From an uncultured Eubacteriales bacterium (GTDB lineage: Bacteria; Bacillota; Clostridia; Oscillospirales; CAG-272): a stretch of 64,000 nucleotides of DNA. Below are positions 5,219-62,412 of the stretch, piece by piece. Under the pieces are notes generated by a model. That model was not told the origin of the DNA and did not search any database. It saw only the letters and a list, made by a program, of their open reading frames with translations. Within the stretch, counting starts at the first letter, position 1. Every line of letters starts with the position of its first letter. Location of the stretch: contig CAKVOU010000007.1 in assembly GCA_934796165.1 (NCBI GenBank), forward strand, positions 27,303 through 91,302. Reading direction: 5' to 3'. Both the position numbers and the translations under genes were made by a program.

Positions 5219-5259
5219 ACCGGAAACGGATGAAAACTGAACCGAAAAGGAGTTTTTAT

Positions 5260-33399: not shown

Positions 33400-33611
33400 C
33401 GCGCGGACACCGGATTTTCCCGGGCGGATCCGCCGGAAAGCCGGAAGAAACGCCGTATCCGGACGACACCCCATGCGACAACTCTGCCGGTACCCGAGCC
33501 GCAGTCCCGCGGGCGGGCAGCGATCCGGCAAACCAACGGAATCCGAAAGCTTCTGTCGGGCAACCCGACTATTACCCTCCCCTCCCGGGAGGTTCATAAG
33601 GAACAGTACTT

Positions 33612-34940: not shown

Positions 34941-35035
34941 CGCGGTGGTATATACCGGATCGTGCCGCGGCACCGCCGGGATACAGCCGTGAAACCAAAT
35001 ACCGGAACGAATCCACAGAAAGGCAGAGTTAATAT

Positions 35036-35581
35036 ATGTATCAGGCAGTCGGAGTCATGGAACTCAAAAGCATCGCCAAGGGGATCGAAGCGGCAGACGA
35101 CGCGCTCAAGAGCGCGGGAATCCGTCTCGTGTCCGCGCATCCCTCCTGCCCCGGAAAATACGAAATCATTCTGACAGGCTCGGTGTCCAATGTGACCGCC
35201 GCCGTCGATCATGTCAAGGAAAGATTCGGAGACGTGATCGTGGACAGCTGCGTCATGGGCAGAATCGACGAGCAGGTCATCACCGCTCTCTACGGCACGC
35301 AGGCAGTCGCAAAGGAAGGTTCACTCGGCATTGTCGAGACCTATTCCGCGTCCTCCGCGATCAAGGCGGCGGATATCGCGGTCAAGACCTCCCGCGTGGA
35401 GATTTACGAATTGCGTCTGTCCCGCGGTATGGGCGGCAAGGGCGTTCTCCTCGTCACGGGCGAGGTCGGGGACGTAACGGCTGCCGTGGAAGCCGGCGCA
35501 AAGTACGCAAAGGAGCAGTCGCTCTATAACTACTCCGCTGTCATCGCCGCTCCCCACGAGGAGCTCTGGGAACAGCTCTGA
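35036..35581 (+). CDS. tandem-domain BMC-T shell protein, PduT-like
   Basis: Two fused BMC domains. The SCPGKY cysteine sits at the position of the PduT pore [4Fe-4S] ligand. Confidence 0.85.
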   Translation: MYQAVGVMELKSIAKGIEAADDALKSAGIRLVSAHPSCPGKYEIILTGSVSNVTAAVDHVKERFGDVIVDSCVMGRIDEQVITALYGTQAVAKEGSLGIVETYSASSAIKAADIAVKTSRVEIYELRLSRGMGGKGVLLVTGEVGDVTAAVEAGAKYAKEQSLYNYSAVIAAPHEELWEQL

Positions 35582-35703
35582 TAAAATTGCCGGATGCCGG
35601 GAGAATATCCCCGCAGCCTGCAAAGAATTACCGAAAGCCGCCGGTTTTTCCGGAACGGCTTCCGGTTTTCCCCGTTTGATTCCGTCCGAAAGGAGGCAAG
35701 CCC

Positions 35704-38232
35704 GTGGAATCCATTCGTTTTTGCCTTAAAAAGAGCGAGCGTATCACCAAGCTGGTGCACGACCTCTACGATCATCTCCCCGAGATTGAGCCGTACCGTG
35801 CCGAGCTGGTCACAGAGAGCTACAAACAGACCGAAAACCTGCCGATCATCAAAAGACGTTCGGCGGCTTTTCGTCATATTCTCGAAAACTTCCCCGTCGT
35901 TATCCGTGACGGGGAGCTGATTGCCGGCTCCAACTCCGTTTCCCCGCGCGGGTGTCAGACCTTCCCGGAATACTCCTTTGAATGGCTGGAGCCGGAGTTT
36001 GACACGATTGCCACACGCGAAGCGGATCCTTTTTACATTTCCGACGATACCAAGCGTCGTCTTTCTGCCGTCCACCCTTATTGGAAGGGTAAGACGGTGA
36101 GCGACCTTGCCGCTTCAAACATGGATCCCGAGGTACTGGATGTTTTCCTGCACCACGGCATTTTCACGGTCGGCAACTACTTCTACAACGGCATCGGGCA
36201 CGTCAACGTCAACTACGAAAAGGTCATCCGCGACGGGTATGCATCCTTCCTTGACGAAGTGCGCAGGACGCGCGCGTCGCTTGACATGGGAAGCGGCGAC
36301 TACATTACGCGCAAGCAGTTTCTCGACGCGGTGGAGGAATCGCTCCTTGCCGTCATCGGCTACGCGCACCGCTATGCGGAGCTTGCGGAAAAGACCGCCG
36401 GCGGCTGTGCCGATCCGGTCCGCCGCCGCGAGCTGAAGCGCATTGCCGACGCCTGCCGGTGGGTCCCGGAGCATGGTGCGCGTACCTTCTTCGAGGCGTG
36501 CCAGTCCTTCTGGTTCGTGCAGCAGCTTCTGCAGCTGGAATCCAGCGGACATTCCATCTCTCCCGGGCGCTTTGATCAGTATATGTATCCCTATTTCAGG
36601 GCGGACATTGAGTCGGGCAGAGAAACCCTCGAATCGGCACAGGAGCTGATCGACAACATCTGGGTCAAACTCAATGACCTGAACAAGGTGCGCGACGCGG
36701 CATCGGCAAAGGGCTTTGCCGGATACGGGCTGTTCCAGAATCTGATCGTGGGCGGTCAGGACGAGAACGGGCGCGACGCGACCAACGAATTGTCCTATCT
36801 TTGCCTCGAAGCCTCCATGCACGTCCGTCTGCCCCAGCCGTCCCTGTCCATCCGGATCTGGAACGGCACGCCGCACGATCTCATGATCAAGGCGGTCTCG
36901 GTCACGCGCGACGGGCTCGGTGTTCCCGCGTTCTACAACGACGAGGTGATTATTCCCGCGCTGATGAATCGGGGGCTTTCGCTTGCCGAGGCGCGCGACT
37001 ACTGCATCATCGGTTGCGTGGAGCCGCAGAAGGGACACATGACCGACGGCTGGCACGACGCGGCGTTCTTCAATATGTGCCGTCCTCTGGAAATGGTATT
37101 TTCCGACGGCTTTGACCGCGGAGTGCAGATCGGTCCCCACACGGGGAATGTGGAGGAGTTCTCCACCTTTGAAGAATTCTTTGACGCCTACAAAAAGCAG
37201 GAGCACGCCATGCTCAGAATGCTGGTGAACGCCGACAACGCGGTGGATCTGGCGCACGCGGTGCGCTGTCCCCTGCCCTTTGAGTCCTCCATGGTGGATG
37301 ACTGCATCGGGCGCGGCAGATCACTCCAGGAGGGCGGTGCGCACTACAATTTCACGGGTCCGCAGGGCTTCGGCATTGCCAACGTGACCGATGCGCTCAC
37401 GGCGATCCGGGAGCTGGTCTACAACCAAAAGTCGGTCACCATGAAAGAAATGAAGGAAGCGATCGCCGCCAACTTCGGCGAAGCGCCCTCCAAGGAAGAA
37501 GCGATCCGGCTGACGGCGGAGGTAGTCGCACAGCTGACCGGGACCGGTGTCACCGTCACGGACGCGCAGATCGCGGACATCTGCCGCATGATTCTCTCGG
37601 GCAACGCGCTCCCCGAGGCAAAGCGCGCGCGTTACCATGAAATCAGGGAAATGATCGACGCGCTGCCGAGGTACGGCAACGACGACGAGACGGTCGATCT
37701 GCTTGCACGCGAGGTCGCCTACACCTACACGCGTCCGCTTGAGACCTTTACCAACCCGCGCGGCGGGCGGTATCAGGCAGGACTGTATCCGGTATCCGCC
37801 AATGTTCCGCTCGGCGCGGAGACGGGAGCGACGCCGGACGGAAGGCTCTGCGGCACGCCAATTGCGGACGGGGTCGGCCCCGCGCAGGGGCGGGACACCC
37901 ACGGTCCGACGGCGGCGGCAAACTCCGTGGCGAAGCTGGATCACGGCATTGCCTCCAACGGAACGCTGTTCAACATGAAATTCCATCCGTCCGCGCTTGC
38001 GGGCATGGCGGGACTTGAAAAGTTTGCCGCCTTCATCCGCGGATTCTTCGATCAGAAAGGTATGCACGTGCAGTTCAACGTGGTCTCCAGGGAGACGTTG
38101 CTTGACGCGCAGGCGCACCCCGAAAACTACAAAACGCTGGTCGTCCGCGTTGCGGGATACAGTGCGCTCTTCACGACGCTGTCGCGTTCGCTTCAGGACG
38201 ACATCATCAGCCGTACCGAGCAAGGGTTTTAA
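35704..38232 (+). CDS. glycyl radical enzyme, B12-independent diol (1,2-propanediol) dehydratase-like
   Basis: GTG start with AAAGGAGG upstream. Cys loop IIGCVEPQ, C-terminal glycyl loop VVRVAGYSALF, 842 aa. The substrate call rests on locus context only. Confidence 0.9.
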   Translation: MESIRFCLKKSERITKLVHDLYDHLPEIEPYRAELVTESYKQTENLPIIKRRSAAFRHILENFPVVIRDGELIAGSNSVSPRGCQTFPEYSFEWLEPEFDTIATREADPFYISDDTKRRLSAVHPYWKGKTVSDLAASNMDPEVLDVFLHHGIFTVGNYFYNGIGHVNVNYEKVIRDGYASFLDEVRRTRASLDMGSGDYITRKQFLDAVEESLLAVIGYAHRYAELAEKTAGGCADPVRRRELKRIADACRWVPEHGARTFFEACQSFWFVQQLLQLESSGHSISPGRFDQYMYPYFRADIESGRETLESAQELIDNIWVKLNDLNKVRDAASAKGFAGYGLFQNLIVGGQDENGRDATNELSYLCLEASMHVRLPQPSLSIRIWNGTPHDLMIKAVSVTRDGLGVPAFYNDEVIIPALMNRGLSLAEARDYCIIGCVEPQKGHMTDGWHDAAFFNMCRPLEMVFSDGFDRGVQIGPHTGNVEEFSTFEEFFDAYKKQEHAMLRMLVNADNAVDLAHAVRCPLPFESSMVDDCIGRGRSLQEGGAHYNFTGPQGFGIANVTDALTAIRELVYNQKSVTMKEMKEAIAANFGEAPSKEEAIRLTAEVVAQLTGTGVTVTDAQIADICRMILSGNALPEAKRARYHEIREMIDALPRYGNDDETVDLLAREVAYTYTRPLETFTNPRGGRYQAGLYPVSANVPLGAETGATPDGRLCGTPIADGVGPAQGRDTHGPTAAANSVAKLDHGIASNGTLFNMKFHPSALAGMAGLEKFAAFIRGFFDQKGMHVQFNVVSRETLLDAQAHPENYKTLVVRVAGYSALFTTLSRSLQDDIISRTEQGF

Positions 38233-38468
38233 GGGAATTCCGGGAGAGTAAGCGAGTCGGGCGGCGGAAGTCCGCGGTTGCGGCTCGGGGGCTCTGGGAG
38301 ACGAGGGGGCACGGCGGACGGAGAGCCGCTGAGCGCGGGCGGAAGTCGCCCGGCTGCGCGCGGATACAGGTTTCTGCGTATACCGGTAAAGTCGTCCCTC
38401 GCACAGTACAGAGTTACCCCTCGGACCAGCAGATTTGCCCATAAAAAAGACCGAAAGGAGACCGTGCC

Positions 38469-39299
38469 ATGTATCTGTACGGCGGACAATCGAATGCTGA
38501 CAGCCGGGCGGAATCTCCGGACGGCTCCGTCAGGGGGCGCATCTTTGACATCCAAAGATACTCCGTACACGACGGTCCCGGCATCCGCACCATTGTATTC
38601 TTCAAGGGCTGTGCGCTGCGTTGCCGTTGGTGCTGCAACCCCGAATCCCAGGAATCCGGAATCCAGACCATGGTCCGCGCGGGAAAGACCGAAACGGTCG
38701 GGCGCGACGTGACCGTTGACGAGGTGCTTTCCGAGGTGCTCCGCGACCGTCCGTATTACCTGCGTTCCGGCGGCGGTATGACGCTCTCCGGCGGAGAGGC
38801 ACTGCTTCAGCCGGAATTTGCCCTTGCACTCCTCCGGGCGGCGCACGACGAAGGGCTTGACACTGCAATCGAGACGGCGGGCTTTGTTCCCGAAGAAAAC
38901 CTTGTACGGGTGCTCCCCGAAGTCGATCATGTGCTGATGGACATCAAGCACATGGACAAAAACAAGCACCGTGCCTTCACGGGGCAATCCAACGAACGGA
39001 TTCTTTCCAATGCACGCTATACCGCCTTCCACGCAAAAGAACTGATCATCCGGGTACCGGTCATCCCGACCTTCAACGATACGGAGGAAGAGATCCGCGC
39101 GATCGCCGCATTCGCGGCGGGGTTACCCGGCGTGAAAAAACTACACCTGCTTCCCTACCATCGTCTGGGACAGGACAAATACACGGGGTTATCCCGCGAC
39201 TACGGAATGGGGGAGGTTCCCCCGCCGACAAAGGAGCACATGGAAACGCTTCTTTCGGTTGCAGAAGAATCCGGGCTGACCTGTCAGATCGGCGGCTGA
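38469..39299 (+). CDS. glycyl-radical enzyme activating radical-SAM protein (short, PflA-like)
   Basis: HDGPGIRTIVFFKGCALRCRWCCNPES CX3CX2C motif. 276 aa. Confidence 0.9.
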   Translation: MYLYGGQSNADSRAESPDGSVRGRIFDIQRYSVHDGPGIRTIVFFKGCALRCRWCCNPESQESGIQTMVRAGKTETVGRDVTVDEVLSEVLRDRPYYLRSGGGMTLSGGEALLQPEFALALLRAAHDEGLDTAIETAGFVPEENLVRVLPEVDHVLMDIKHMDKNKHRAFTGQSNERILSNARYTAFHAKELIIRVPVIPTFNDTEEEIRAIAAFAAGLPGVKKLHLLPYHRLGQDKYTGLSRDYGMGEVPPPTKEHMETLLSVAEESGLTCQIGG

Positions 39300-39537
39300 C
39301 ATCCGCCGCCACGCTCGCTTCCCGCGCCCGCCTGCGGCGCTTCGCGCCGCTGCCGCCGGGAGCCGGGCAATCATGTTTCAAAAAAACGGGCGGTTCTCCG
39401 CCCCGGCTCCCGGCGCCCCGCCACCCGCTCCGCGGGTGGCGCGGGCGCGGTACCGCAAAGGGGTTCTTCCCGGCGGCGGTACACCACACAAGCACGGAGA
39501 ACTGTTCCGCACGGTTTTCCCGGATAAGGAGAATGCA

Positions 39538-39906
39538 ATGAGCCAAGACCTGTTCAAAGAAAATATGCGTATTGTCCAGGAGCTGGTTCCAGGGCGGCAG
39601 ATCACACTCGCGCACATCATCGCCAACCCCGACCGCGAGCTGTACCGCAAGCTGGGACTTGACCCCGCGGTGGATTACGCGCACGCGGCAATCGGCATTC
39701 TGACCGTCAGTCCCGCGGAATCCGCTGTCATCGCGGCGGATCTCTCCATGAAGTCCTCGGACGCGTCGCTCGGCTTTGTGGACCGCTTCACGGGCACGGT
39801 GCTCCTGACCGGTTCGGTTTCCGCGGTGGAATCCTCCTTTTCGGCAGTCACGGAATACTTCCGCGCAACACTCGGTTACGCGGTCTGCCCCATGACGCGC
39901 ACGTAA
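39538..39906 (+). CDS. circularly permuted BMC shell protein (PduU/EutS-like)
   Basis: ORF 39373..39906 trimmed to the ATG at 39538 (AAGGAGA upstream). VQELVPGRQITLAHIIANPD...AIGILTVSPAESAVIAADL. Confidence 0.85.
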   Translation: MSQDLFKENMRIVQELVPGRQITLAHIIANPDRELYRKLGLDPAVDYAHAAIGILTVSPAESAVIAADLSMKSSDASLGFVDRFTGTVLLTGSVSAVESSFSAVTEYFRATLGYAVCPMTRT

Positions 39907-50734: not shown

Positions 50735-52249
50735 TCAGTTCATTCCCTTTTCAATGAGAACAAACTCAAAATTATAATTGTGATTTTTCAGATGAATCGT
50801 CCCCGTCGAGGTCACCTCGCGGCAGTCGCCGAGGCTCATCAAATAGTCGTAGCAGGCGCCGCGCGTCACCCAGACGCGTCCCCGGAGCTCATTGATTTCG
50901 GGGCAGTCGAGGGAATCCAACACCCGTGCATTGGGTCCGAAGGAACGGTAGGTTTTCTCCACCTTCCAGTGGGCACCGTTGTAATAATACTGCATATTGC
51001 CGGGATAGCGCACCGTTGCGACAAAGACATCCGCCCCCTCAAAGAAGAAGATGTCGCCCTCCTCCACCTTGTCGTCCAGCGCGTCCGTCACCGCGTCCGC
51101 AGACGGATCATAGATCAGGCGGAAAGTGCCGTAAACCGGGTACGCGGCAAGCGCGACCAGCAGGATCACCGCGACCGCCTTTTTCCATGCGCCCTTCGAC
51201 GTGGCAATCAGATACGCGATCACGAAAACCGTAAACACGAACAGCACCATGGTGTAGCGGATATAGAAGATCTCGCGCACCAGCGACACAAGCATGGAAA
51301 AGAGCACCACGCCGAAATAGGCATAGAGCGACCAGCGGACGGCTTCGCGCGTTTTTTCGGTGTCATCCGGTACCGTCGGCTCCTTGTGCGAACGCCTGTA
51401 CAGAACGATACCAGCGAGAACATAAAGCGCCAGGAACACAAGCCCGCCGTAGCGGTATTGCTTTGTTGTTTCAAAAAAGGTATACAGCTCGTCCCCGACC
51501 AGATGATAGGAAACGAGGTTGTACACGGTGTCGGGCCAGAGAAGACGGATCCAGTCCGCGCCGCCCGTTCTGATCTGGAGCCGGAATACATACGCACCCG
51601 GCAGGTACGCGCAGATCTGCGCGGCGCCGAGGATCAGCCAGCGTCTGACGGAATCCTTTTGCAGAATCGTGCGGACGAGCAGCATGACGTTGATCGCCGC
51701 GACCGTGAAGAGCGCGAAATAATGGGTATACGCCGACGCAATCGAAAAAACGGCAAACAGGATGCAGTTCTTTTTTGTCGCTTCCCCGCGCGAGATGCGG
51801 TAGGCATAGATTGCGGTCAGACCGACCAGATACATTGCCATTGAGTACATCCGGATCTGAAGCGCGTAGGTCAGGGTGGCGCCGAGCAGGTAGGTCACGG
51901 TCGTGAACCAGAAGCCGATACGGTCACCGAAGTCACGGCGGATGTGGGTCAGTCCCAGCGAAGCGAACGCCACCGCGAACAGCGCGGAGAACAGGCGCAT
52001 GACGGGAATGGAGGTTCCGAACACGCGGGTAAAGAGCCAGAGAACGATGTAGTACAGATGCGGATGCACGTCGTAAGATGACCACTTGATCATCTCAAAG
52101 AGGCTTGTGTGATTCATGAGCCCCACGGTGAAGGACTCGTCAAACCAGAGACTGTTTGAAAAACAACCGGAAATCAGATACACAGCTCCCGCGAACAAGA
52201 CGATAAGGTGCCATATGGGAAGCTTTTTTTGTTGGGATATGGTCGGCAT
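50735..52249 (-). CDS. GT-C fold polytopic membrane glycosyltransferase (GT39/ArnT/YfhO-like)
   Basis: 504 aa, 10 or more predicted TM segments. N-terminal WFDESFT-type motif region. Confidence 0.75.
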   Translation of the reverse strand: MPTISQQKKLPIWHLIVLFAGAVYLISGCFSNSLWFDESFTVGLMNHTSLFEMIKWSSYDVHPHLYYIVLWLFTRVFGTSIPVMRLFSALFAVAFASLGLTHIRRDFGDRIGFWFTTVTYLLGATLTYALQIRMYSMAMYLVGLTAIYAYRISRGEATKKNCILFAVFSIASAYTHYFALFTVAAINVMLLVRTILQKDSVRRWLILGAAQICAYLPGAYVFRLQIRTGGADWIRLLWPDTVYNLVSYHLVGDELYTFFETTKQYRYGGLVFLALYVLAGIVLYRRSHKEPTVPDDTEKTREAVRWSLYAYFGVVLFSMLVSLVREIFYIRYTMVLFVFTVFVIAYLIATSKGAWKKAVAVILLVALAAYPVYGTFRLIYDPSADAVTDALDDKVEEGDIFFFEGADVFVATVRYPGNMQYYYNGAHWKVEKTYRSFGPNARVLDSLDCPEINELRGRVWVTRGACYDYLMSLGDCREVTSTGTIHLKNHNYNFEFVLIEKGMN

Positions 52250-52258
52250 GATAACGGT

Positions 52259-53203
52259 TCAATCCTTTTTCAGTTCAATGGAATGGTCCGTTTCGGTTTC
52301 ACGGACGATGTAAACGGGGCGCGCCTTGATCTCAATGAAGATCTGGGAGAGGTACTGCCCGAGGATTCCGAGCCCCAGAAGGATCGAGCCGCCGATGAGC
52401 AGTCCGATGGTACAGCCGGTCAGAACGGAATTCGAGAAAATGATGGCGAGGATCAGCGTGACGATACCGCCCGTGAGGAGCAGTCCGCCCGTAACGGCGG
52501 AAAGATACAGCGGCGCGGTCGAAAATGCGGTAATGCCCTCAAACGCATAGCGGATGAGCTTGCCGAGCGGGAATTTACTGACGCCCGCGACCCGCTTGCT
52601 GTTTTCATACGGAATCCATTTGGTGCGGAATCCGACAAAGCTGAAAATGCCCTTGGAATAACGGCACTTTTCGGGGAGCGCGAGAATCGCCTCAACGACC
52701 TTGCGCTTCATAAGACGGAAATCGCGCGCGCCGCTGACCATTTCCACGTCGGACAATTTGTCGATCAGCTTGTAGAAGGCATTGGCGCCGATGGTCTTGA
52801 GAATCGGTTCCCCTTTTCTTGTGACGCGGCGCGCGGCAACCTGATCGTAGCCCTCGTCCACAATGCCGTCATACATGGTGCGGAGCATGGCGGGCGGGTC
52901 CTGCAGGTCGGCGTCCAGCATGGTCACGAAATCGCCCGTTGCGTTCTCCATGCCCGCAAGCATCGCGGCTTCCTTGCCGAAGTTGCGGGAGAACGAAATA
53001 AACCGGACGCGGTCGTTCTTCTCCCGGAGCCCCTTGATGAGTTCAAGCGTTTTGTCGGTCGAACCGTCGTCCACAAACAGATATTCAAAGTCCACGTCCA
53101 GCGGTGTGAACAGTTCGCGCCGGACGCGTTCCGCCTCACCGAAGAAGGTGAGAACGGTCGATTCCTCATTGTAGCATGGCACGATGACAGATATAGTTTT
53201 CAT
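52259..53203 (-). CDS. GT2 polyprenyl-phosphate glycosyltransferase (GtrB/CsbB-like)
   Basis: ISVIVPCYNEE...VDDGSTD...LDADLQDPP, plus two C-terminal TM helices. Confidence 0.9.
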   Translation of the reverse strand: MKTISVIVPCYNEESTVLTFFGEAERVRRELFTPLDVDFEYLFVDDGSTDKTLELIKGLREKNDRVRFISFSRNFGKEAAMLAGMENATGDFVTMLDADLQDPPAMLRTMYDGIVDEGYDQVAARRVTRKGEPILKTIGANAFYKLIDKLSDVEMVSGARDFRLMKRKVVEAILALPEKCRYSKGIFSFVGFRTKWIPYENSKRVAGVSKFPLGKLIRYAFEGITAFSTAPLYLSAVTGGLLLTGGIVTLILAIIFSNSVLTGCTIGLLIGGSILLGLGILGQYLSQIFIEIKARPVYIVRETETDHSIELKKD

Positions 53204-53616
53204 AGTTTTCCCCCATATGATTCCTGACCGGTCGTTTTTTTGCCGCCCGGCACATCGGCTTTGCGTGCCGACAACACAGACGCGACCGCAGGTACTCGAA
53301 ATCTGGTTACAGTTTCCACACTATTATAACATAGGACGGACGAGAGTGCAAGAAGTTTCCGAAATTCAGGAAAAAACTTGCGAATCCGTCGGAAAATTTC
53401 CCGACAGCCGCAGGGCGTAATTTTCAGGCAACCCCGCTTATACGGATGTCCGTACAAACAGCTTTGTGCGGAACTTTCTTTTAAGCAGATCCGTGCCACC
53501 CCTCTTATCGGCTTGTCCGGTCAAGTCAATCTGCCCCTTTGCTCCCAATTTCTTGAAATTTTTATTTCAACTGTCATTTTATGGCAGTCTGCGACATGGT
53601 TTGTCAGAAAAAGTCC

Positions 53617-53625
53617 TGCTATAAT
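53617..53625 (+). promoter_or_regulatory. extended -10 promoter upstream of the phage head module
   Basis: TGCTATAAT about 175 nt upstream of the TerS GTG. Confidence 0.45.
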
Positions 53626-53800
53626 CAGCTTGCACGGGGCAAACGTGCATCGCCGCAGGCACAAAGTGAGGCGCGGAGAGCGGAACGCAGAAAAGCGGAA
53701 AGCAGAAACGTCAAGCGAAACTCCTGCGGCGAGAGGACAGGCACGGAGGTTCTCCGGAAACGGCGGACCTCCGGAATCCGGAAGAAAGGAGTCAGGCACA

Positions 53801-54826
53801 GTGAAAGCCGAGCAGATGCAGATACCGATAGAAACAGAACTGCCGACCGGACAGCCGGAGCAAAACTCCGGGCAACCGGAAGCCGCCCCCGGCGTCGCCT
53901 TCTGCGACGACGACGGGAACGGCGGACCCGCCAAAAACGGCAGTCGCTCCCGTAAACCCACGTCCCCGCCGATGAGCGCGGCGGGGGACGACGATGGGAA
54001 CGGCAAACCTACCAAAAGCGGCAGTCGCTCCCGCAAGCCCACATCCCCGCCGATGAGCGCGGCGGAGGACGACGATGGGAACGGCAAACCCACCAAAAGC
54101 GGCAGTCGCTCCCGCAAGCCCACATCCCCGCCGATGAGCGCGGCGGAGGACGACGAGAACGGCAAACCCACCAAAAGCGGCAGTCGCTCCCGCAAACCCG
54201 CGTCCCTGCCGATGAGCGCGGCGGAGGACGACGATGGGAACGGCAAACCTACCAAAAGCGGCAGTCGCTCCCGCAAGCCCACATCCCCGCCGATGAGCGC
54301 GGCGGGGGACGGGACCGGGAATACAGCACCCGCGGGACCGGGTGCGGGGGGAATTGCCTCCCTGCCCCGCCCCATCCCGCGGGACTGCCGCGATCCGCTG
54401 GCGCTTGCCAGAGGCGGTCTGCTCTTCGATCTGCTTTCCCTGTATCTGGAGCACTGTTCCGGAAAACCCGGCACACCGGGAACCGGGAAAAGCAATCCGT
54501 CCGCGAAAGCGGTATCCGGCACAAGAGAAACCAAAAAAGCCGCCCCCGTCAGCCGCTTTCCCAACCTCGCGGGCTTCTGTCGGTTCCTCGGTGTCGGTAT
54601 GGCGAAGATGGAGCAGCTTGCCGCAAAGGAACCGGAAATCTACGATTCCCTCTGCGCGGTCTTCGAGGACGAAGCGCTCAATTCGGGCGTTTCCGCCTCG
54701 GTGCTGACTCCCTACTTCAAGAAGCGTCTCGGCTATGCGGAAAAGGCGCCCGCCTCCTCCGACGACGAGGATCCGGGAGGGATCCGGCTGATCTTCGACC
54801 ACGACATCTGGGAGGACGGCGCATGA
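53801..54826 (+). CDS. phage terminase small subunit with N-terminal tandem-repeat region
   Basis: GTG at 53801 with AAAGGAG upstream. C-terminal RFPNLAGFCRFLGVGMAKMEQLA...YFKKRLGY resembles Terminase_4-type TerS. Confidence 0.7.
   Translation: MKAEQMQIPIETELPTGQPEQNSGQPEAAPGVAFCDDDGNGGPAKNGSRSRKPTSPPMSAAGDDDGNGKPTKSGSRSRKPTSPPMSAAEDDDGNGKPTKSGSRSRKPTSPPMSAAEDDENGKPTKSGSRSRKPASLPMSAAEDDDGNGKPTKSGSRSRKPTSPPMSAAGDGTGNTAPAGPGAGGIASLPRPIPRDCRDPLALARGGLLFDLLSLYLEHCSGKPGTPGTGKSNPSAKAVSGTRETKKAAPVSRFPNLAGFCRFLGVGMAKMEQLAAKEPEIYDSLCAVFEDEALNSGVSASVLTPYFKKRLGYAEKAPASSDDEDPGGIRLIFDHDIWEDGA
53906..54307 (+). repeat. 5 in-frame tandem copies of an 81-bp unit (one is 78 bp)
   Basis: DDDGNGKPTKSGSRSRKPTSPPMSAAE repeated. 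CAGTCGCTCC recurs at 81, 81, 78 and 81 nt spacing. Confidence 0.9.
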
Positions 54827-54830
54827 GGGT

Positions 54831-56150
54831 ATGACACGCGAGCTTCACATTCCGGGAACCCCCAATCCGCGCCAGCTTCTCTTCTTCCGCTCCACCGCCC
54901 GTTTTACCGCCTACGGCGGGGCGCGAGGCGGGGGAAAATCCTGGGCGCTCCGGCGCAAGCTGGTCGCCCTCTGCCTCCGCTACCCCGGGATCACCTGCCT
55001 GCTTGTCCGCAGGACGCTCCCGGAGCTGCGCGCAAACCACCTTCGTCCGCTGCTCACCGAGTACGCGGAGCTTCTCTCCTATTCCGAGGAACAAAAGTGC
55101 ATTTCCTTCCCGAACGGAAGCCGCATTTACCTCGGATACTGCGCGTCGGAACGCGACGTGCTGCGCTACCAGGGTCAGGAATACGACATTATCGCCATCG
55201 ACGAGGCAACGCAACTGAGCGAATATCAGTTTTCCATTTTCAAGGCCTGTCTGCGAGGCACCGGGGACTGTCCCCGAAGAATGTATCTGACCTGTAACCC
55301 CGGCGGCGTGGGACACGCGTGGGTCAAGCGTCTGTTTGTTGACCGCGCCTTCCGCAAGGGAGAAAATCCGGACGACTACTGCTTCATCCCAGCCCGCGTT
55401 TCCGACAATCACGTTCTGACAGACGCGGACCCCGAATACGTCAAAAGCCTCGAAAGCCTGCCGCCGCGGCTGCGCGACGCGTGGCTCCTCGGACGCTGGG
55501 ACGTATTCGAGGGACAGTTTTTTCCCGAGTTTGATCCGGAGATTCACACCTGCGACCGTTCGGTGATTCCCCAATACACAAGACGCTTTGTCGCACTGGA
55601 CTACGGATTCGATATGCTCGCCGCCCTGCTTCTCGGAGTCGGCGAGGACGGGATACTGTACGTGTTGCGCGAAACCTGCGTGCCGGGACTGACAGTGGGG
55701 GAAGCGGCGATGAAGGTGGCAGAGCTTGCCCGGGGGGAGGCTTGCGAATACGCGGTCGCCTCTCCGGATTTGTGGAACCGCCGGCAGGATACGGGACGCA
55801 GCGGCTTTGAGATCATGCAGGCTTGCCCGGGGATGCCCCCGATGCGGGCAGCCGATGACCGCCGCGTGCCCGGCTGGCGGGTACTCCGCGAATTGCTCCG
55901 CGTATCGGAAGAGTCTCAAGGCAAACCCCGGCTAATGATCTCACGGGATTGCCGCGAACTCATCCGGTGCCTCCCTGCACTGCTGTTTGACCGGGAGAGG
56001 TCGGAGGACGCGTCCGGGGAACCCCACGCCGTCACCCATGCGCCGGAGGCACTCCGGTACGCGGTGATGAGCCGGAGCCAACCGCCGGCAAAGCCGCCGG
56101 CAAGACACGACTTCCGCTTCCCCTCAAAAAAAGCAGCGTATTCGTTCTGA
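54831..56150 (+). CDS. phage terminase large subunit
   Basis: Walker A YGGARGGGKSWA, Walker B-like YDIIAIDEA, and a nuclease domain with the C-terminal HAVTHAPEALRY motif. Confidence 0.9.
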   Translation: MTRELHIPGTPNPRQLLFFRSTARFTAYGGARGGGKSWALRRKLVALCLRYPGITCLLVRRTLPELRANHLRPLLTEYAELLSYSEEQKCISFPNGSRIYLGYCASERDVLRYQGQEYDIIAIDEATQLSEYQFSIFKACLRGTGDCPRRMYLTCNPGGVGHAWVKRLFVDRAFRKGENPDDYCFIPARVSDNHVLTDADPEYVKSLESLPPRLRDAWLLGRWDVFEGQFFPEFDPEIHTCDRSVIPQYTRRFVALDYGFDMLAALLLGVGEDGILYVLRETCVPGLTVGEAAMKVAELARGEACEYAVASPDLWNRRQDTGRSGFEIMQACPGMPPMRAADDRRVPGWRVLRELLRVSEESQGKPRLMISRDCRELIRCLPALLFDRERSEDASGEPHAVTHAPEALRYAVMSRSQPPAKPPARHDFRFPSKKAAYSF

Positions 56151-56513
56151 AAGTGCCGGAGAGTCCCCGGACATCCGGATGCCCCGTGCCCGCTCTCCGG
56201 CAATCTGCCCGGTAAGTTGCCCGGTTGCCCCCATCCGGACTTCTTTCCCTCGCGGGTCCATGCGGGTCCACCGGTAAGACACCCGGCAGTTGCTCTTCCT
56301 CCGCCTCCCCCAAAACACGGGACGACCCCATCCGAGAGGTCATCCTCCCGTATGTTTCTCACCTGTACGCCCGGTATACTGTCCTTAACAAACGGTACCG
56401 GCATCAGAAAAACGGCGAAGGTCTGCAATTACCGAAAGGGCGGAACGCATCCGCACAGGAAAAGAACAAAACCATCCGAACACCCACAAAAACACAAGAA
56501 CAAGGAGAAACAA

Positions 56514-58280
56514 ATGTCACATGTCACATCGGGCACGGTCTCTCCGGTCGGCGGCTCCGCCGCCGCTGAAAAAATCGTTACGGTTGCCGGCTTTGCCGGC
56601 ATCGACAAAAGAATCTGCCCCGGAGGAGAGCCGTCCGGCTCGGGACCGTCCGCCGTGGCAGATGTCAGGAACTTCCGTGTTCTTCCCGGCGGCGCGCTGG
56701 AAAAACGCAAGGGCTTCCGCTGTCTTGCCACGCTGGCGGGGCAGATCCGTGCCGCCGTCCCGCTTCTGTACAACGGCGAGGAGCATCTGATCTGCGCCAC
56801 CGCAAACGGGGTGTACGATTACTCCGAGGACCTCGGAATCCGCCGCATCACTTCCATGTCCCCGGCGGGCGACTGTACCTACTTTTACCGCGCCGCGAGC
56901 GGGCTCAGCCTGTTTATGAACGGGCAGACCTTCCGCGTTGCCGTCAACCGCATTTCGGCAAGCGCGTATCTCCCTACCTATCTGAAGGACCACGAAAGCA
57001 CACTTCCCTGTCTTGCGACCGATGTTTACGAGGATTTCAACCTTCTGACACGGTATGTCCGCATGACCTTTGCTTTCAAGACCGACACAGATCTCATCTG
57101 CCTGCCTTTTCAGCCGAAATCGGTCCGTACCCTCAAGGTCAACGGGCAGAAATGGACAGGGACCTACACCTTTGAGACCCTCAACGGATACCTGTTTATG
57201 CGCTTGTCCGCTGAGGTTGCCAAGGGAGGAACGGCGGAGCTGATCTGCGCCGCGCCGGACTCGGTCTTCGGGGAGGACGACCATCCGCTGTCCCAAGCCG
57301 GCTCGGCATTCTTTTTCAAAACCAGCGGGCTGGAGGGGCAACAGTACCTCATCCTTGCCATGCCGGACGGCGGCTGCCGTTGGAGCAACCCCATTCCGGA
57401 CGACGGGGTCGGGAGCGTGTATTTCCCCAAAGCCAACTACTTCGACCCGGTGCCGGACGGATATCCGATCACCGGATTCACCCGTCACTTTGACCGGATT
57501 CTTTGCTTTACGGAAAACGCGACCTATCAGCTTCTCCGGTTGGATCCGAGTCCGCGCTTCCGCTTCTGCAACAGCAGCATCGGATGTGTCTCGCCCAATG
57601 CAACCGCCATTGTGGAGAATGCGCCGGTCACCATCTCAGACGGAAATCTGTGCCGTTTCACCGACAACTCCGAGGAATCCGATCTGGACGATGCCGCCCC
57701 GGTATCCGGTGCCATCGGCGACCTCGGATTAGCCGGCGGAGCGTGTCTGTTCTTTGACCGCATCCGGCACGAGCTGTGGATCCGGGATATGACCTCCTCT
57801 GAGGGGCTTGTACACATTTACAACGTACAGACAAACGCCTGGTACATCTTTTCCGGCATTCCGGCAAACGGGTTCTTCCTCTTTGACAGACAGGTCGGGT
57901 ATTTCGGCGGAAAGTCCCTGTATCTCACGGACGACACCCGTTCAACGGACGAAGATACAAACGGAGACGACGTTCCGATCCACGCACTTGCCGAAACACA
58001 CTGGATGGGCTTCGGTGCCGGAAACCCCGTCCGGCGTTCCGGGACGCTTGCTCTGACCTGCCTGACCGGCGGCGGGAAGTTCACCCTTGAGGTCCTGACC
58101 GATTCCGGAGCCGATTGCAAAGCGACCGTCAGCAGGGACACGCCCTCCGCCCCGGAAGCGCCGGCGATCCTGGAATACGGCTTCAACCCCGGTCGTTTCC
58201 GCTTCTTCAAGATACGGATCACCTCCGACAGCACGGAGCACATCGGGCTTTACCGCCTTTGTGTTGCGGGAAGAAAATGA
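56514..58280 (+). CDS. 588-aa phage-module protein of unknown function (beta-rich, propeller-like by eye)
   Basis: ORF 56217..58280 trimmed to the ATG at 56514 (AAGGAGAAA upstream). No family recognised. Confidence 0.75.
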   Translation: MSHVTSGTVSPVGGSAAAEKIVTVAGFAGIDKRICPGGEPSGSGPSAVADVRNFRVLPGGALEKRKGFRCLATLAGQIRAAVPLLYNGEEHLICATANGVYDYSEDLGIRRITSMSPAGDCTYFYRAASGLSLFMNGQTFRVAVNRISASAYLPTYLKDHESTLPCLATDVYEDFNLLTRYVRMTFAFKTDTDLICLPFQPKSVRTLKVNGQKWTGTYTFETLNGYLFMRLSAEVAKGGTAELICAAPDSVFGEDDHPLSQAGSAFFFKTSGLEGQQYLILAMPDGGCRWSNPIPDDGVGSVYFPKANYFDPVPDGYPITGFTRHFDRILCFTENATYQLLRLDPSPRFRFCNSSIGCVSPNATAIVENAPVTISDGNLCRFTDNSEESDLDDAAPVSGAIGDLGLAGGACLFFDRIRHELWIRDMTSSEGLVHIYNVQTNAWYIFSGIPANGFFLFDRQVGYFGGKSLYLTDDTRSTDEDTNGDDVPIHALAETHWMGFGAGNPVRRSGTLALTCLTGGGKFTLEVLTDSGADCKATVSRDTPSAPEAPAILEYGFNPGRFRFFKIRITSDSTEHIGLYRLCVAGRK

Positions 58281-58327
58281 AAGCGGGCGTACCCGCCGCT
58301 TATCAACCGAAAGGAAAAAGATCAAAT

Positions 58328-59893
58328 ATGAAACAAACAACTACCGTTTCCTGGCGGCTGTACGATGCCGGCAGGGAATACAACAGACGGATCGGGCTGT
58401 ACGCCACGATCCGGAAAAACGAACGCTTTTACCGGGGAGATCAGTGGTACGGCACGGAGGAGGACGGACTGCCGCATCCCGTGTTCAACATTGTCCGCCG
58501 GGTGACGGATTACCTCGTTTCCTCTGTCGGCTCCGGTAATGTCAGCTTTTCGTTCGTCACGGACGATGTGATTGCCGGGAACGCGGAAGTCATCAAAGCC
58601 CGGGCGGAAGCGCTGGATGTTCTGTCGGACGCCGCGACCGATCTGTGGAAGGATTCCCGGGTAGAGCGAAGAGTTCCGGAGCTGCTTCTTGATGCCGCTC
58701 TGACCGGCGACGCCGCCGTCTACTGCCGTTGGAACGGCGACATGGGGAGTGCGGGCGGTTTCAGCGGCAACGTGGAGACCGACCGGATCGACGGTGCGAA
58801 TCTGTTTCTCGCGGATGTATCCTCCTCCGACATTCAGTCGCAGGCGTGGGTCATGCTGGCAGGACGAGCATCCGTCGGGGAGCTTCGCCGCGACGCTGCG
58901 CTTGCGGGTGTCAGCGAGGCAGACCTTTCAAGGATCCTGCCGGACGACAACCGCGACACCAAAATCGGCGACCTTGCCGACGCTCTTCCCACGGACGACT
59001 ACGCGACCTTCCTCATCCGCTTCCGGCGCGATCAGGACGGATATGTGGTCTTCCGGAAATCCACCCGTGAGGTGGACTTCCCGGAGGTGCACACCAAAAG
59101 ACGCCTTTATCCCATCGCGCTCTTCAACTGGTACCGGACGCGTGGGAGCTATCACGGCACATCGCCGGTCACGTCGTTGCTTCCGAACCAGCGTTTTCTG
59201 AATCTTGCCTACGCGCTCTGCATGAAGCATATGCGCGACACGGCGTTCTCCAAGGTGATCTACGACCAGTCGCGGATCCCCGAATGGAGCAACGAGGTCG
59301 GAGAAGCGATCGCGGCGGTCGGCGGCGGAAACATTTCCGACGCAGTGAGCGTCGTGGGAACGGGCAAGATGGCGGAGGGCTATCAGTCCTTCATCGACCG
59401 TGTGACCGAGGCGACCAAAGAAATGATGGGTGCGACAGACACGGTGCTTGGCTCCGCGGAGGCTTCCAACACAAGCGCGATCCTGGCGCTTCAGGAAGCG
59501 TCGCGTGTCTCGCTCGGGCAGGTCGTTTCCGCGTACACCAGATTCTTGGAGGAGATCGCGGAGATCTGGGCGGATCTCATCCGTTCCGCCTATCCGCCGG
59601 AGCGGCCGGTTCCGAAGCCCGACGGTTCCGGCATGGTCCGCTATGCGGATTTCTCGGTGCTTGGCGGGCTCACCGTCCATGCGCTTGCGGAGATTGCGGG
59701 CAGCGGGCGATACAGTGCATCCGAAACGGTGAATGTGCTGGACAAGCTGCTTTCGGGCGGACACATTACTGCGGTACAGTATCTGGAGCGTCTGCCGTCC
59801 GGACTGCTTGCGGGGAGAGATTCTCTTCTCGCGGAGCTGAAGGAGAGCGGAAAGGAGGGCGGCGAAAGCGATGGAAACAACGGAAATGGATGA
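58328..59893 (+). CDS. phage portal protein (SPP1 gp6-like)
   Basis: YNRRIGLYATIRKNERFYRGDQWYG...LPHPVFNIVRR. An alternative start at ATG 58277 overlaps the upstream stop. Confidence 0.8.
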   Translation: MKQTTTVSWRLYDAGREYNRRIGLYATIRKNERFYRGDQWYGTEEDGLPHPVFNIVRRVTDYLVSSVGSGNVSFSFVTDDVIAGNAEVIKARAEALDVLSDAATDLWKDSRVERRVPELLLDAALTGDAAVYCRWNGDMGSAGGFSGNVETDRIDGANLFLADVSSSDIQSQAWVMLAGRASVGELRRDAALAGVSEADLSRILPDDNRDTKIGDLADALPTDDYATFLIRFRRDQDGYVVFRKSTREVDFPEVHTKRRLYPIALFNWYRTRGSYHGTSPVTSLLPNQRFLNLAYALCMKHMRDTAFSKVIYDQSRIPEWSNEVGEAIAAVGGGNISDAVSVVGTGKMAEGYQSFIDRVTEATKEMMGATDTVLGSAEASNTSAILALQEASRVSLGQVVSAYTRFLEEIAEIWADLIRSAYPPERPVPKPDGSGMVRYADFSVLGGLTVHALAEIAGSGRYSASETVNVLDKLLSGGHITAVQYLERLPSGLLAGRDSLLAELKESGKEGGESDGNNGNG

Positions 59894-60818
59894 AATAACG
59901 GAAGTTACCGGGGTAAGCGAAGTCCCGGATGGGGATCCGGCGGCGATGCCGGCGCAAGACGGCGAGCCTGCCGGCGGGCACCCATCGGGGGCGAGCGCGG
60001 CAGAGAGCGTCCCGGCGGAAGAAACAAGCGAGGCAAACGATGGGGATCCGGCGGCGATGCCGGCGCAAGACGGCGAGCCTGCCGGCGGGCACCCATCGGG
60101 GGCGAGCGCGACAGAGAGCGTCCCGGCGGAAGAAACAAGCGAGGCAAGCGATGGGGATCCGGCGGCGGAGCCGGCGCAAGACGGCGAGCCTGCCGGCGGG
60201 CACCCATCGGGGGCGAGCGCGACTGATACCGTCGGGGTAAATGAAGTAAGCGATGCAACCGACGGGGATCCGGCGGCGATGCCGGCGCAAGACAGCGAGC
60301 CTGCCGGCGGGCACCCATCGGGGGCGAGCGCGGCTAAAGCCGTCCCGGCGGAAGAAACAAGCGAGGCAACCGATGGGGATCCGGCGGCGTACGTGACAAG
60401 CGAGGCAGCCTCCCCCGCCCCGCCGTCAGCCGAAACGCTGCTGTGCGAGATCGCGCAATTGAAGGAACGGCTTGACCGCGCGGAAAAGGAACGTTCGCGC
60501 ATCGCCGGAGAAATCGCGGAATTCCGCACCCTTTACCCCGACGTATCGCCCGACTCGCTTTCCGCGTCGGTCTGGGATGCGTTTTCCCGCGGCGTGCCGC
60601 TCGCCGCGTCCTTTGCCCTGGAGGAACGCTACCGTGCCCGTGCCGCCGAGCTTGCGAAAGCGACCAACGAGCGCAACCGGGAGAATGCGTCTCCATCCGC
60701 AGGAAGTACCGTCCCCACCGGCTTTTATTCGCCCGACGAGGTGCGTGCGATGTCCTCTCCGGAGGTCCGCACCCACTACGCGGCGATCCTCGATTCCATG
60801 AAACACTGGGATCGGTAA
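59871..60818 (+). CDS. phage scaffolding protein with acidic tandem-repeat N-terminus
   Basis: Position between portal and coat. Coiled-coil LLCEIAQLKERLDRAEKERSRIAGEI and C-terminal SPDEVRAMSSPEVRTHYAAILDSMKHW. Confidence 0.7.
   Translation: METTEMDEITEVTGVSEVPDGDPAAMPAQDGEPAGGHPSGASAAESVPAEETSEANDGDPAAMPAQDGEPAGGHPSGASATESVPAEETSEASDGDPAAEPAQDGEPAGGHPSGASATDTVGVNEVSDATDGDPAAMPAQDSEPAGGHPSGASAAKAVPAEETSEATDGDPAAYVTSEAASPAPPSAETLLCEIAQLKERLDRAEKERSRIAGEIAEFRTLYPDVSPDSLSASVWDAFSRGVPLAASFALEERYRARAAELAKATNERNRENASPSAGSTVPTGFYSPDEVRAMSSPEVRTHYAAILDSMKHWDR
59928..60389 (+). repeat. 4 in-frame tandem copies of a 111-bp unit plus a partial fifth
   Basis: DGDPAAMPAQDGEPAGGHPSGASAAESVPAEETSEAN repeated with few substitutions. 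Confidence 0.9.
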
Positions 60819-60888
60819 AAATAGATGATCAACCAACAACACCGTGACCACCACGGCAACATGATAAAATCAGAAAGGATCAAAAAAT

Positions 60889-61728
60889 ATGGCTATCACC
60901 AATTTTATTCCCACCGTCTGGAGCGAAAACCTCTATACCGCGCTTGACAAGAAGTATGTCGGCGTTGCAAACTGTAACCGCGCCTTTGAGGGCGACATCC
61001 GCGAAGCGGGCAGTGTCGTCAAGATTCTCGGCGTCGGCGATGTCACCGTATCCGACTACACCAAAAACACCGATCTGTCCTCTCCCGAGGCGCTTTCCGA
61101 TACGGTGCGCGAGCTGACCATCAATCAGGCGAAATGCTTCAACTTCCAGATCGACGACGTGGACCGCGCGCAGGCAAAGCCCCAGCTGATGAACGAAGCG
61201 ATGAAGGTCGCGGCGAACGCACTTGCGGCAACCGCAGACACGTATGTCTACTCGCTTTACGGAAGCGCCGGAACGACTGTCTCTCAGGCATCCGTCAGCG
61301 CAACCAACGTGCTTGACACGCTCATCAGCGCGCGTACCAAGCTCCTCAAGGAAGGTGTGACCGATCCCTCCGACATCGTGATCGAAGTCTCCCCCGAGGT
61401 CGCCGAGCTGATTTTCAAGGCGAAGATCACGAGCGCATCCGACAACTCCGATGTGCTGGAGAACGGCTGTATCGGCTCTGTCGGCGGATGCAAGATCTAT
61501 GTCTCCGGCAACATTGCAACGGTTGCCGACACCGCCAACAAAAAGGTGTTCCACAAGTGCTTCGCGCGTACCCGCCGCGCAATCGCGTTCGCGGAACAGC
61601 TCTCCGAGATTGAAGCATACCGCCCCGAGAAGCGTTTTGCCGACGCAGTCAAGGGTCTGCACCTCTACGGCGCAAAGGTCGTTTACCCCAAGGAACTCAT
61701 CCTGCTTGACCTCGGCTTTGCCGCGTAA
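60889..61728 (+). CDS. phage major capsid (coat) protein, P22-coat-like family
   Basis: MAITNFIPTVWSENLYTAL... N-terminus typical of this coat family. Correct position and size (279 aa). Confidence 0.8.
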   Translation: MAITNFIPTVWSENLYTALDKKYVGVANCNRAFEGDIREAGSVVKILGVGDVTVSDYTKNTDLSSPEALSDTVRELTINQAKCFNFQIDDVDRAQAKPQLMNEAMKVAANALAATADTYVYSLYGSAGTTVSQASVSATNVLDTLISARTKLLKEGVTDPSDIVIEVSPEVAELIFKAKITSASDNSDVLENGCIGSVGGCKIYVSGNIATVADTANKKVFHKCFARTRRAIAFAEQLSEIEAYRPEKRFADAVKGLHLYGAKVVYPKELILLDLGFAA

Positions 61729-61899
61729 GCATGAATAATCCGGATTCCCTGCCGCAGGTTCCGCAAAGACCGCAGTCTCCGCAGGCTCGCTGTCAAGGGA
61801 ATCCGGTCCCCCTTCGATGAAGAAAAGACCAAATCGAAGGTCCAAAACCAAGAGTAATAAACCAAAGAAAAAAGCTGAGAAAGCGGAAAGGCATGGCAC

Positions 61900-62313
61900 A
61901 TGGCACAAAAATGCAAATCCATCTTTGATAACGCCCTCCGGCTTGCGGGCGCGGGAAGCGATCCCGACCTGACGGAGGATTACGCCGAACGGATGCGGTA
62001 TCTGCTCGCCTGCTTCATCGGGGAATGCTACGGCATGGACGCCTCCTACCGTCAGCGGCTTGCGATCACGGGAGAGACCGTTCTCCCGGAAGTATTCGAC
62101 AAAGCCGTGATCGACGAAACGGAGGATTTTCCGATGAGCGTGCGGTTCGCCCCTGCGGCGGCATACTACGTCGCGTCGATGCTGGTGCTGGAGGAAAATC
62201 CGGCGCTGTCCGACCGGCTGTACACAAGATTTGAGGACGCGCTCTCGCACATCCGTGCGGGCATTCCGATGGTGATTTCGGAGATCGAGAACCGCTACCG
62301 GACGGTCGCGTAA
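61900..62313 (+). CDS. 137-aa phage head-associated protein (possible head-tail connector/adaptor)
   Basis: Last gene of the module before the terminator. No family recognised with confidence. Confidence 0.6.
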   Translation: MAQKCKSIFDNALRLAGAGSDPDLTEDYAERMRYLLACFIGECYGMDASYRQRLAITGETVLPEVFDKAVIDETEDFPMSVRFAPAAAYYVASMLVLEENPALSDRLYTRFEDALSHIRAGIPMVISEIENRYRTVA

Positions 62314-62375
62314 AAGTAAAAGTTCCGTCCCGAAGAAAACCCGGCGCGCGGAATGAAACCAAACAAAACCCAAAA

Positions 62376-62412
62376 GGGGCTTTCGCTTTCGCGACAGCCC
62401 CCGTTTGTTTTA
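62376..62412. terminator. bidirectional rho-independent terminator
   Basis: GGGGCTTTCGC/GCGACAGCCCC stem (one mismatch), with T-rich flanks on both strands. Confidence 0.7.

Follow-up and report, generated by a model that had tools for sequence, protein, structure and literature searches.

What is the role of a cluster of seven phage-type genes that is embedded between housekeeping genes of a bacterial chromosome? We addressed this question for a stretch of 64,000 nucleotides (nt) from an uncultured Eubacteriales bacterium (GenBank assembly GCA_934796165.1, contig CAKVOU010000007.1, positions 27,303 to 91,302), which is called the window in the following; coordinates refer to its first nucleotide unless a different sequence is named. 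A preliminary description had noted seven intact open reading frames (ORFs) on the + strand at ∼53.6–62.4 kb, which our ORF calls confirm as real and closely spaced. It interpreted this module as head-only, belonging either to a tailless capsid-producing element, satellite-like or domesticated, or to the left arm of a rearranged prophage. We propose that the locus represents a domesticated operon, fixed in the chromosome, for a minimal, short-tailed packaging particle resembling a gene transfer agent (GTA) and that, as in classical GTAs, activator, lysis functions and fibres are contributed by other loci of the host. We assign this reading a probability of roughly 0.55. The module is a strong candidate for a new GTA-like family.

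Matches to Pfam and PHROGs bear out the proposed identities of the large terminase subunit (TerL), the portal and the capsid protein. The latter had been described as a P22-like coat. It is a capsid protein, but its likeness to P22 is one of name only: it matches PF25209, and its nearest relatives in the INPHARED phage collection are 39–45% identical capsids of siphoviruses such as phiCP39-O.

The most consequential correction concerns the third gene, g3, whose 588-amino-acid (aa) product had been listed as unknown. An AlphaFold model based on an alignment of 85 relatives is all β (pLDDT 91.3, pTM 0.90). When this model was compared with the PDB by Foldseek, the top 31 matches were all podovirus tail nozzles (E-values of 1e-16 to 1e-10), including those of T7 (gp12), P22 (gp10), SU10, Kp7/Kp9 and cyanophages. 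The P22 gp10 structure 8eap_D was matched with E = 2.1e-12 and a probability of 1.0, and proteins annotated as “P22 Gp10, DNA-stabilising” were among the matches in the viral structure library BFVD. The predicted β-propeller fold identifies g3 as a tail nozzle of podovirus type, like T7 gp12 and P22 gp10, so the module is predicted to encode a stub tail in addition to the head, and the terms “head-only” and “tailless” were wrong. No Pfam family matches g3. A word-based search returned only three homologues and five with a profile, whereas an exhaustive HMMER search recovered 1534 relatives. T7 gp12 and P22 gp10 share the fold of g3 (Foldseek E-values of about 1e-16 to 1e-12, probability 1.0), but here the gene is located between terL and the portal gene and not after the capsid gene.

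The capsid protein has thousands of homologues, the top 120 of which are 64–98% identical and derive from uncultured Clostridia. With each GTDB species represented by a single genome, a scan verified 438 encoded relatives; the counts of loci in this paragraph refer to the best 80 species loci among these. In 66 of the 80, the contig extends far enough to show TerL, portal and capsid, and all 66 are colinear with the window. The shared order is TerS-like protein (g1), TerL, nozzle, portal, scaffold (g5), capsid and g7. All seven genes could be detected by tblastn in 52 loci, and the nozzle in 60 by tblastn plus two by profile search. Median identities are 68% for TerL, 66% for the capsid (61–71% across 79 species loci), 48% for the portal, 44% for g1, 40% for the scaffold, 37% for g7 and 25% for the nozzle. 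The module has a median length of ∼7 kb (8.8 kb here), and the seven-gene unit ends after g7, the 137-aa gene of the window, in every lineage.

The genes that flank the module have housekeeping functions and vary by lineage: hprK is found in 13 species loci, recX-recA also in 13 (RecA and RecX were recognised by sequence, not by family search), and GFO/AP-endonuclease genes are located upstream in about ten. No cluster of integrase, tail, lysis or replication genes recurs around the loci, neither the window nor the surrounding 10 kb of ∼80 loci yielded integration or replication genes, and no att-like flanking repeats were detected at the module. In a related species, the module occupies exactly the same site as in the window, with SpoIVB, a 506-aa gene and a GT2 glycosyltransferase on one side and PFOR, DUF378 and an aminotransferase on the other. 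The GC content of the loci ranges from 0.40 to 0.66 across the family, pointing to hosts that differ widely in base composition. In the window, third-position GC content (GC3) of the module is 0.71–0.75 and resembles that of the neighbouring genes.

Comparison with a close relative yielded dN/dS ratios of 0.07 for the capsid, 0.09 for the portal, 0.10 for g7, 0.13 for TerL and 0.28 for the nozzle, indicating purifying selection. Across 59 orthologues of TerL, conservation of the Walker A, Walker B and nuclease motifs is at least 95%. Given these ratios and motifs, the genes are not decaying. Pairwise identities of the module proteins track those of the adjacent RecA or HPrK (Pearson 0.82–0.97), a correlation that is supportive but, as the pairs are not independent, does not amount to a formal test. 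Colinearity, core-gene flanks, purifying selection and co-divergence with host genes together uphold the earlier suggestion of a domesticated capsid-producing element.

Within the module, the nozzle gene evolves fastest. Relative to its counterpart in the closely related locus L085 (positions 10001–11767 of that locus), the protein is 63% identical with a dS of 1.03, whereas the flanking genes are 94–100% identical with dS values of 0.05–0.17. At the nucleotide level, identity to the close relative is 64–70% across the nozzle gene compared with 94–99% outside, and the divergence tapers into TerL and portal. This sequence pattern is best explained by allele replacement through recombination, with the nozzle as hot spot.

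We also compared the module with phage genomes, using INPHARED and the best 80 IMG/VR contigs by capsid sequence. Among the latter, capsids of at least 52% identity occur only on contigs of at most 10 kb that carry the module. Contigs larger than ∼11 kb (up to 68 kb) share the capsid alone, at no more than 46% identity; their portals and terminases differ from those of the module, and they have no nozzle. INPHARED contains no match to the nozzle, and no phage genome in either set combines the head, nozzle and portal of the module. A 9.6-kb human faecal virome scaffold deposited as “Bacteriophage sp.” (MT836592.1, positions 1–9588; our locus L088) carries a related small gene followed by genes for TerL (52%), portal (29%), scaffold, capsid (39%), two small proteins and a nozzle homologue (profile E = 8e-51). 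Here, the nozzle gene follows the capsid gene and the two small genes, as is usual for tail genes.

How is the operon expressed? A promoter-like element had been proposed at position 53617. This site indeed harbors an extended –10 box that is part of a promoter conserved throughout the family, but, lacking a –35 box, it escaped a simple σ70 scan. In 48 loci, the region upstream of g1 contains four hexamers with an exact 10-bp period, followed by a –10 box (TAAAAT, TATAAT or TAGAAT) and the element G(T)CACAG, the region of which is probably the transcription start. TGGCAC is the hexamer sequence of most lineages, whereas others have TGAGAC or TGGGAC; the third copy is the most degenerate. The spacing between the hexamers and the –10 box is 12 nt in 41 of the 48 loci. 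Half of the upstream regions reach an array score of at least 22/24, compared with none of 1000 shuffles. Across ∼1.2 Mb of host loci, the array occurs upstream of g1 only, and no further copy was found there that would point to a second co-regulated operon near the module. In the window, a degenerate version is present once (53572–53607), with 0 expected. The leader of the window is ∼170 nt long, compared with 30–45 nt in most other loci; the segment 53632–53805 is predicted to fold with –68.9 kcal/mol (z = –4.87 relative to shuffles), including a strong hairpin just 5′ of the ribosome-binding site (RBS).

Phage contigs of 30–44 kb contain this array as well, again with a spacing of 12 nt. 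It begins there no more than a few bases from the end of a ∼160-aa gene and precedes either terS-terL-portal or an HNH gene. The product of the ∼160-aa gene matches phrog_36, phrog_248 (transcriptional activator) and the Pfam families DUF1492 and Sigma70_r4. Eight phage contigs from IMG/VR (L295, L297, L299, L301, L303, L304, L306 and L337), whose structural genes are unrelated, have the array and its –10 spacing right behind such an activator gene and ahead of their packaging genes; the activator gene itself was identified in L295, L299, L303, L304, L306 and L337. An array of the TGRGAC type is likewise located 3′ of a homologous activator gene in another phage contig. In the phage versions, a terminator-like hairpin follows the promoter.

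This arrangement is known from the Ltr superfamily of late activators (RinA, ArpU, LtrA/Sigma70_r4, LtrB/DUF1492 and LtrC), whose genes lie just upstream of terS (PMC3753634). Experiments demonstrated that Ltr proteins bind direct repeats right after their own gene and are required for transcription of the terS operon (PMC3753634). As in these late promoters of Gram-positive phages, which drive the packaging and morphogenesis operon, direct repeats are located just upstream of the terS promoter in the module. A similar case is Alt/Plate of phage TP901-1, where Alt binds four repeats 10 bp apart. In Ltr phages, however, the activator gene directly precedes the repeats, whereas no ltr homologue was found immediately upstream of the module or anywhere within 10 kb of it in ∼80 host loci. 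The module has the repeats and the promoter without a nearby activator gene, and the activator would therefore have to act in trans. Judged by its sequence, the module promoter is a probable orphan late promoter of the Ltr type, predicted to need an activator encoded elsewhere.

Other functions of the array were considered. We rejected g1 or another module protein as its reader, as no residue column tracks the hexamer type. A role as pac site is disfavoured by the fixed distance of 12 nt to the –10 box, which points to a function in transcription. A σ54 promoter was rejected: TGGCAC is similar to the –24 element, but neither the spacing nor the fourfold repetition is compatible with this type. 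Spo0A or a PhoB-type response regulator is less likely given the phage Ltr context. An array search in metagenome contigs gave at least 120 matches; those listed lie in unrelated sequences from the environment, consist largely of extended tandem repeats of 10 bp and are in no case accompanied by the module. In the contigs L170–L289, long TGGCAC arrays with a 10-bp period occur at GC contents of 0.26–0.73, with up to 13 overlapping matches in a single 1.5-kb contig.

Based on these observations, we propose the following working model. An Ltr-type activator encoded elsewhere would bind the four phased hexamers that replace the –35 box and thereby switch on the single promoter. On the portal, scaffold and capsid protein would build a procapsid, which would be filled with DNA by a headful mechanism through the TerS-like protein and TerL; the nozzle, probably joined via g7, would close the portal and form a stub tail. 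Because genes for replication and excision are absent from the module, most of the DNA in the particles would be of chromosomal host origin. Functions for lysing the cell, and receptor-binding fibres if there are any, would be supplied by other loci or by a phage.

Several points weigh against a host-controlled GTA. Particle formation and the packaging of host DNA are predictions from the gene content of the family. With regard to control by host or phage, the promoter is of the phage type, and its own activator gene is absent from the surveyed neighbourhoods. Lysis genes, fibres and receptor-binding proteins were found neither in the window nor within 10 kb of any locus. No portal-nozzle adaptor, which is present in every solved podovirus tail, was recognised in the module, g7 being the sole candidate and having no fold match. 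Four loci (L016, L072, L078 and L081) have no counterpart of the nozzle, and their portal gene directly follows terL. Finally, close relatives differ more strongly throughout the module than in the flanking genes, indicating that alleles are exchanged horizontally and that inheritance is therefore not purely vertical.

Some of these points lead to a possible, if tentative, alternative, in which the element is on only when a phage supplies the matching Ltr activator and the particles are released by the lysis system of that phage. Its small capsids would package host or phage DNA. The effect would be to pass on genes of a host cell that is about to die, to reduce the phage burst in the manner of phage-inducible chromosomal islands (PICIs), or both, without being an island that excises or replicates. 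The module promoter matches a real phage promoter located between a DUF1492/Sigma70_r4 gene (phrog_36, phrog_248) and terS-terL-portal, and both hexamer types, TGGCAC and TGRGAC, follow such activator genes in phages. The binding of Ltr proteins to the repeats and their requirement for terS operon transcription have been shown experimentally (PMC3753634), and neither an ltr homologue nor lysis genes were found within 10 kb of the module in the ∼80 host loci searched. Vertical retention, purifying selection and the broad range of locus GC content across species, however, fit a host-controlled function more easily, and a domesticated ltr gene could sit elsewhere in the carrier genomes. No interference or defence function was detected, with the PADLOC library not included in the search. 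It is conceivable, though doubtful, that the module is a chromosomally fixed, vertically inherited mini-virion operon that has lost its own activator and lysis genes and is wired to a phage late activator, through which the host packages its chromosome in nozzle-tipped capsids once a phage commits the cell to lysis. Such an element would be a GTA triggered by phages. The nozzle would then possibly serve as a rapidly exchanged specificity determinant, and the particles possibly also as an anti-phage decoy.

We regard it as very unlikely that the module is one arm of a functional phage with a split or rearranged genome, whose fibre, lysis, replication and integration genes lie elsewhere and whose virions are infectious. 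Fibre and lysis genes are indeed missing and must be located elsewhere if particles are released, and FpGTA, the GTA of Faecalibacterium prausnitzii discussed below, likewise encodes fibres and lysis functions separately, in its second operon at a distance of 125 kb (PMC12946183). But the seven-gene unit has the same ends in differing housekeeping contexts in 66 of 66 genomes, it is syntenic between related species, and a split genome would not be packageable as one unit. The idea of a left prophage arm is unlikely in view of these constant ends in every lineage and of the searched phage genomes, none of which has the head-nozzle-portal combination.

Slightly less credible still is a satellite resembling the capsid-forming PICIs (cf-PICIs), which would package itself and borrow the tails of a helper phage. 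The module does encode its own TerS, TerL, portal and capsid, its size of ∼7 kb (8.8 kb here) is near the capacity of small capsids, and its promoter could respond to a helper phage. The satellite proposal nevertheless founders on the lack of integrase, excisionase, repressor, replication and primase genes and of att repeats, on the core-gene flanks and the site conserved between related species, and on a nozzle of its own in place of connectors for a borrowed long tail. A decaying, functionless prophage remnant would explain a partial phage gene content without mobility genes but is effectively refuted by the conservation data, namely seven intact ORFs, 66 of 66 colinear loci, dN/dS ratios of 0.07–0.28, TerL motifs that are at least 95% conserved and a conserved promoter.

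The three remaining genes of the GTA-like operon can be assigned putative roles. The g1 protein, conserved in 62 loci, has a conserved C-terminal domain with the motif RFPNLAGFCRxLG; three of 35 orthologues weakly match phrog_606 (terminase small subunit), and neither Pfam nor a PDB profile search gave a match. The g5 gene is located between portal and capsid in 71 loci, and based on this position its product, which weakly matches phrog_14606, is a putative scaffolding protein. The g7 protein is conserved in 73 loci, and 13 of 43 orthologues match phrog_13046 (function unknown). Neither a PDB profile search nor Foldseek with a poor single-sequence AlphaFold model (pLDDT 55) returned a match, and we consider g7 a candidate head-completion or portal-nozzle adaptor protein. 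In three of the four nozzle-less loci, g7 is longer (193–196 aa), and in L072 and L081, where the contig covers g1, the latter is shorter (104–107 aa).

Two of the module proteins carry N-terminal repeats in the window. In g1, five basic 27-aa repeats, a gain of this lineage, are encoded by five in-frame 81-bp copies (53906–54311); in g5, 4.2 acidic 37-aa repeats derive from in-frame 111-bp copies (59928–60389) and precede a conserved C-terminus. The close relatives L084–L086 have fewer copies (g1 of 251 aa, scaffold of 229–316 aa), and most other species have none. The start of the portal gene, which overlaps the nozzle stop codon, is ambiguous (58277 or 58298); the L084 orthologue was called at 531 aa. 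The features of the locus are summarized in Table 1.

Table 1. Features of the predicted packaging operon and its promoter region in the 64-kb window
Feature	Position	Strand	Comment
Four-hexamer array TGTCAT, TGGCAG, CGACAT, TGTCAG	53572..53607	+	Exact 10-bp period; candidate Ltr-type late-activator sites
Extended –10 box TGcTATAAT	53617..53625	+	TATAAT begins 12 nt past the fourth hexamer; no –35 box
Conserved TTGCACGG element	53630..53637	+	Family consensus G(T)CACAG, just 3′ of the –10 box; alignment of 48 promoters
Long structured 5′ leader	53632..53800	+	Lineage-specific; ends in RBS AAAGGAG
g1, small-terminase-like, GTG start	53801..54826	+	Start set by comparison with L085
TerL, large terminase (packaging ATPase and nuclease)	54831..56150	+	PF03237, PF04466, phrog_979 (2.6e-46)
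g3, predicted 588-aa tail nozzle, T7 gp12/P22 gp10 fold	56514..58280	+	AlphaFold and Foldseek
Portal, P22/SU10-like	58277..59893	+	PF16510, phrog_156
g5, putative scaffolding protein	59871..60818	+	Position between portal and capsid
Major capsid protein, 279 aa	60889..61728	+	PF25209, phrog_267 (5.6e-47)
g7, small all-helical 137-aa protein	61900..62313	+	Always the last gene; putative function
Weak hairpin GGGGCT/AGCCCC with A- and T-rich flanks	62372..62411		Between the operon and the convergent PFOR gene

TerL and nozzle genes are separated in the window by a non-coding gap of 363 nt (56151–56513), much longer than in most loci and only 66% identical to that of the close relative, with many alignment gaps. 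It might contain an internal promoter or mark a recombination boundary.

Directly downstream of the module, a family match verified the convergent PFOR gene. The terminator reported in between is no more than a weak hairpin (62376–62401) with a T-rich run, and the scan called a site on the – strand alone (62383–62365). Upstream, one of two reported glycosyltransferases is a GT2 gene on the opposite strand (52259–53203), but the other, a 504-aa ORF on the – strand (50735–52249), has no NCBIfam match, and its L084 orthologue likewise has no Pfam match. The claim that the window contains no tail, integrase, repressor or endolysin gene agrees with Pfam scans of ∼40 other ORFs, which returned housekeeping functions only, but not with the nozzle g3 itself. 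These ORFs include genes for Maf, MreB, PBP2, EF-P, ribosomal protein L1, SpoIVB, ABC transporters and a glycyl-radical microcompartment locus (33600–39900) with BMC shell proteins, a PFL-like glycyl-radical enzyme, a radical-SAM activase and an RnfC-like flavoprotein. The small ORFs at 2.0–2.9 kb, the region of a supposed holin-like gene, gave no family matches, and Rfam detected no RNA family anywhere in the window. A 1412-aa protein encoded on the – strand (24664–28902) contains a Laminin_G_3/ConA-like domain and a sub-threshold match to the C-terminal receptor-binding region of phage GpJ. Its gene has no upstream repeat array and no link to the module in other genomes, and the product is probably a surface protein.

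GTA-like packaging of 4–10 kb of host DNA has been described for many uncultured gut Clostridia, in a study that identified the gene cluster in Faecalibacterium only and not the locus in the other lineages (PMC12946183). Genomes with such packaging belong to Onthomonas, CAG-115, QANA01, HGM11616, UBA1829, UBA1206, UMGS856 and Ruminococcus_C callidus. We infer that the module is a candidate for the missing genetics of some of these lineages. With ∼7 kb, it would be among the smallest particle-forming gene sets described. Its orphan Ltr-type promoter provides a handle on the rest of the regulon and on the distinction between host and phage control. If phages turned out to trigger the element, infection by a phage would be directly coupled to gene transfer under host control in the gut.

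Comparison with known systems reveals several features that the module shares with GTAs. Like RcGTA and CcGTA of alphaproteobacteria, it is made up of domesticated genes for head and packaging that are inherited vertically and kept by purifying selection; its regulator, too, would lie outside the cluster, and its auxiliary loci elsewhere. RcGTA and CcGTA are siphovirus-like, comprise ∼15–17 genes including those for a long tail, and are controlled by the host regulators CtrA and GafA/GafYZ. The module, by contrast, is podovirus-like, has seven genes and carries a phage-type Ltr promoter. As in GTAs, its phage-derived genes are chromosomally fixed and under selection, although the allele exchange at the nozzle makes their inheritance not purely vertical, and functions for replication, integration and excision of its own are absent from the window and from within 10 kb of ∼80 loci. 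The packaging operons of cf-PICIs and SaPIs are also chromosomal, encode their own capsid and packaging proteins and, as the module could, respond to a helper phage. PICIs, however, have an integrase, a master repressor, a replicon, att sites and excision, none of which was found at the module.

The most similar system is FpGTA, a chromosomal head-plus-nozzle operon that produces 40-nm particles containing ∼8.5–9 kb of host DNA (Borodovich et al. 2026, PMC12946183). Both are chromosomal operons of gut Clostridia that encode a TerS-like protein, TerL, portal, capsid and a nozzle of the P22 gp10 type and contain no replication or integration genes, other functions lying outside the head operon; the structure cited as homologue of the FpGTA nozzle, 8eap, is also matched by g3. 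Nevertheless, the published description of FpGTA sets the module apart from it, and the module is not FpGTA. The FpGTA capsid is annotated as N4-gp56, whereas the module capsid has no NCBIfam match at E ≤ 0.01 and belongs to PF25209 instead. FpGTA has a gene for a Prp-like protease between portal and capsid, which the module does not have. Its ten ORFs include adaptor and nozzle genes after the capsid, compared with seven ORFs, a nozzle between TerL and portal and no recognised adaptor in the module; the FpGTA order TerS-TerL-portal-Prp-like-capsid-x-adaptor-nozzle was deduced from accession numbering and the proteomics table. The virome scaffold MT836592.1, which we considered as a possible FpGTA, has the gene order reported for FpGTA operon I, but its capsid does not match N4-gp56. 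In summary, FpGTA and the module share a chromosomal head-plus-nozzle organization but differ in capsid family, protease gene and position of the nozzle.

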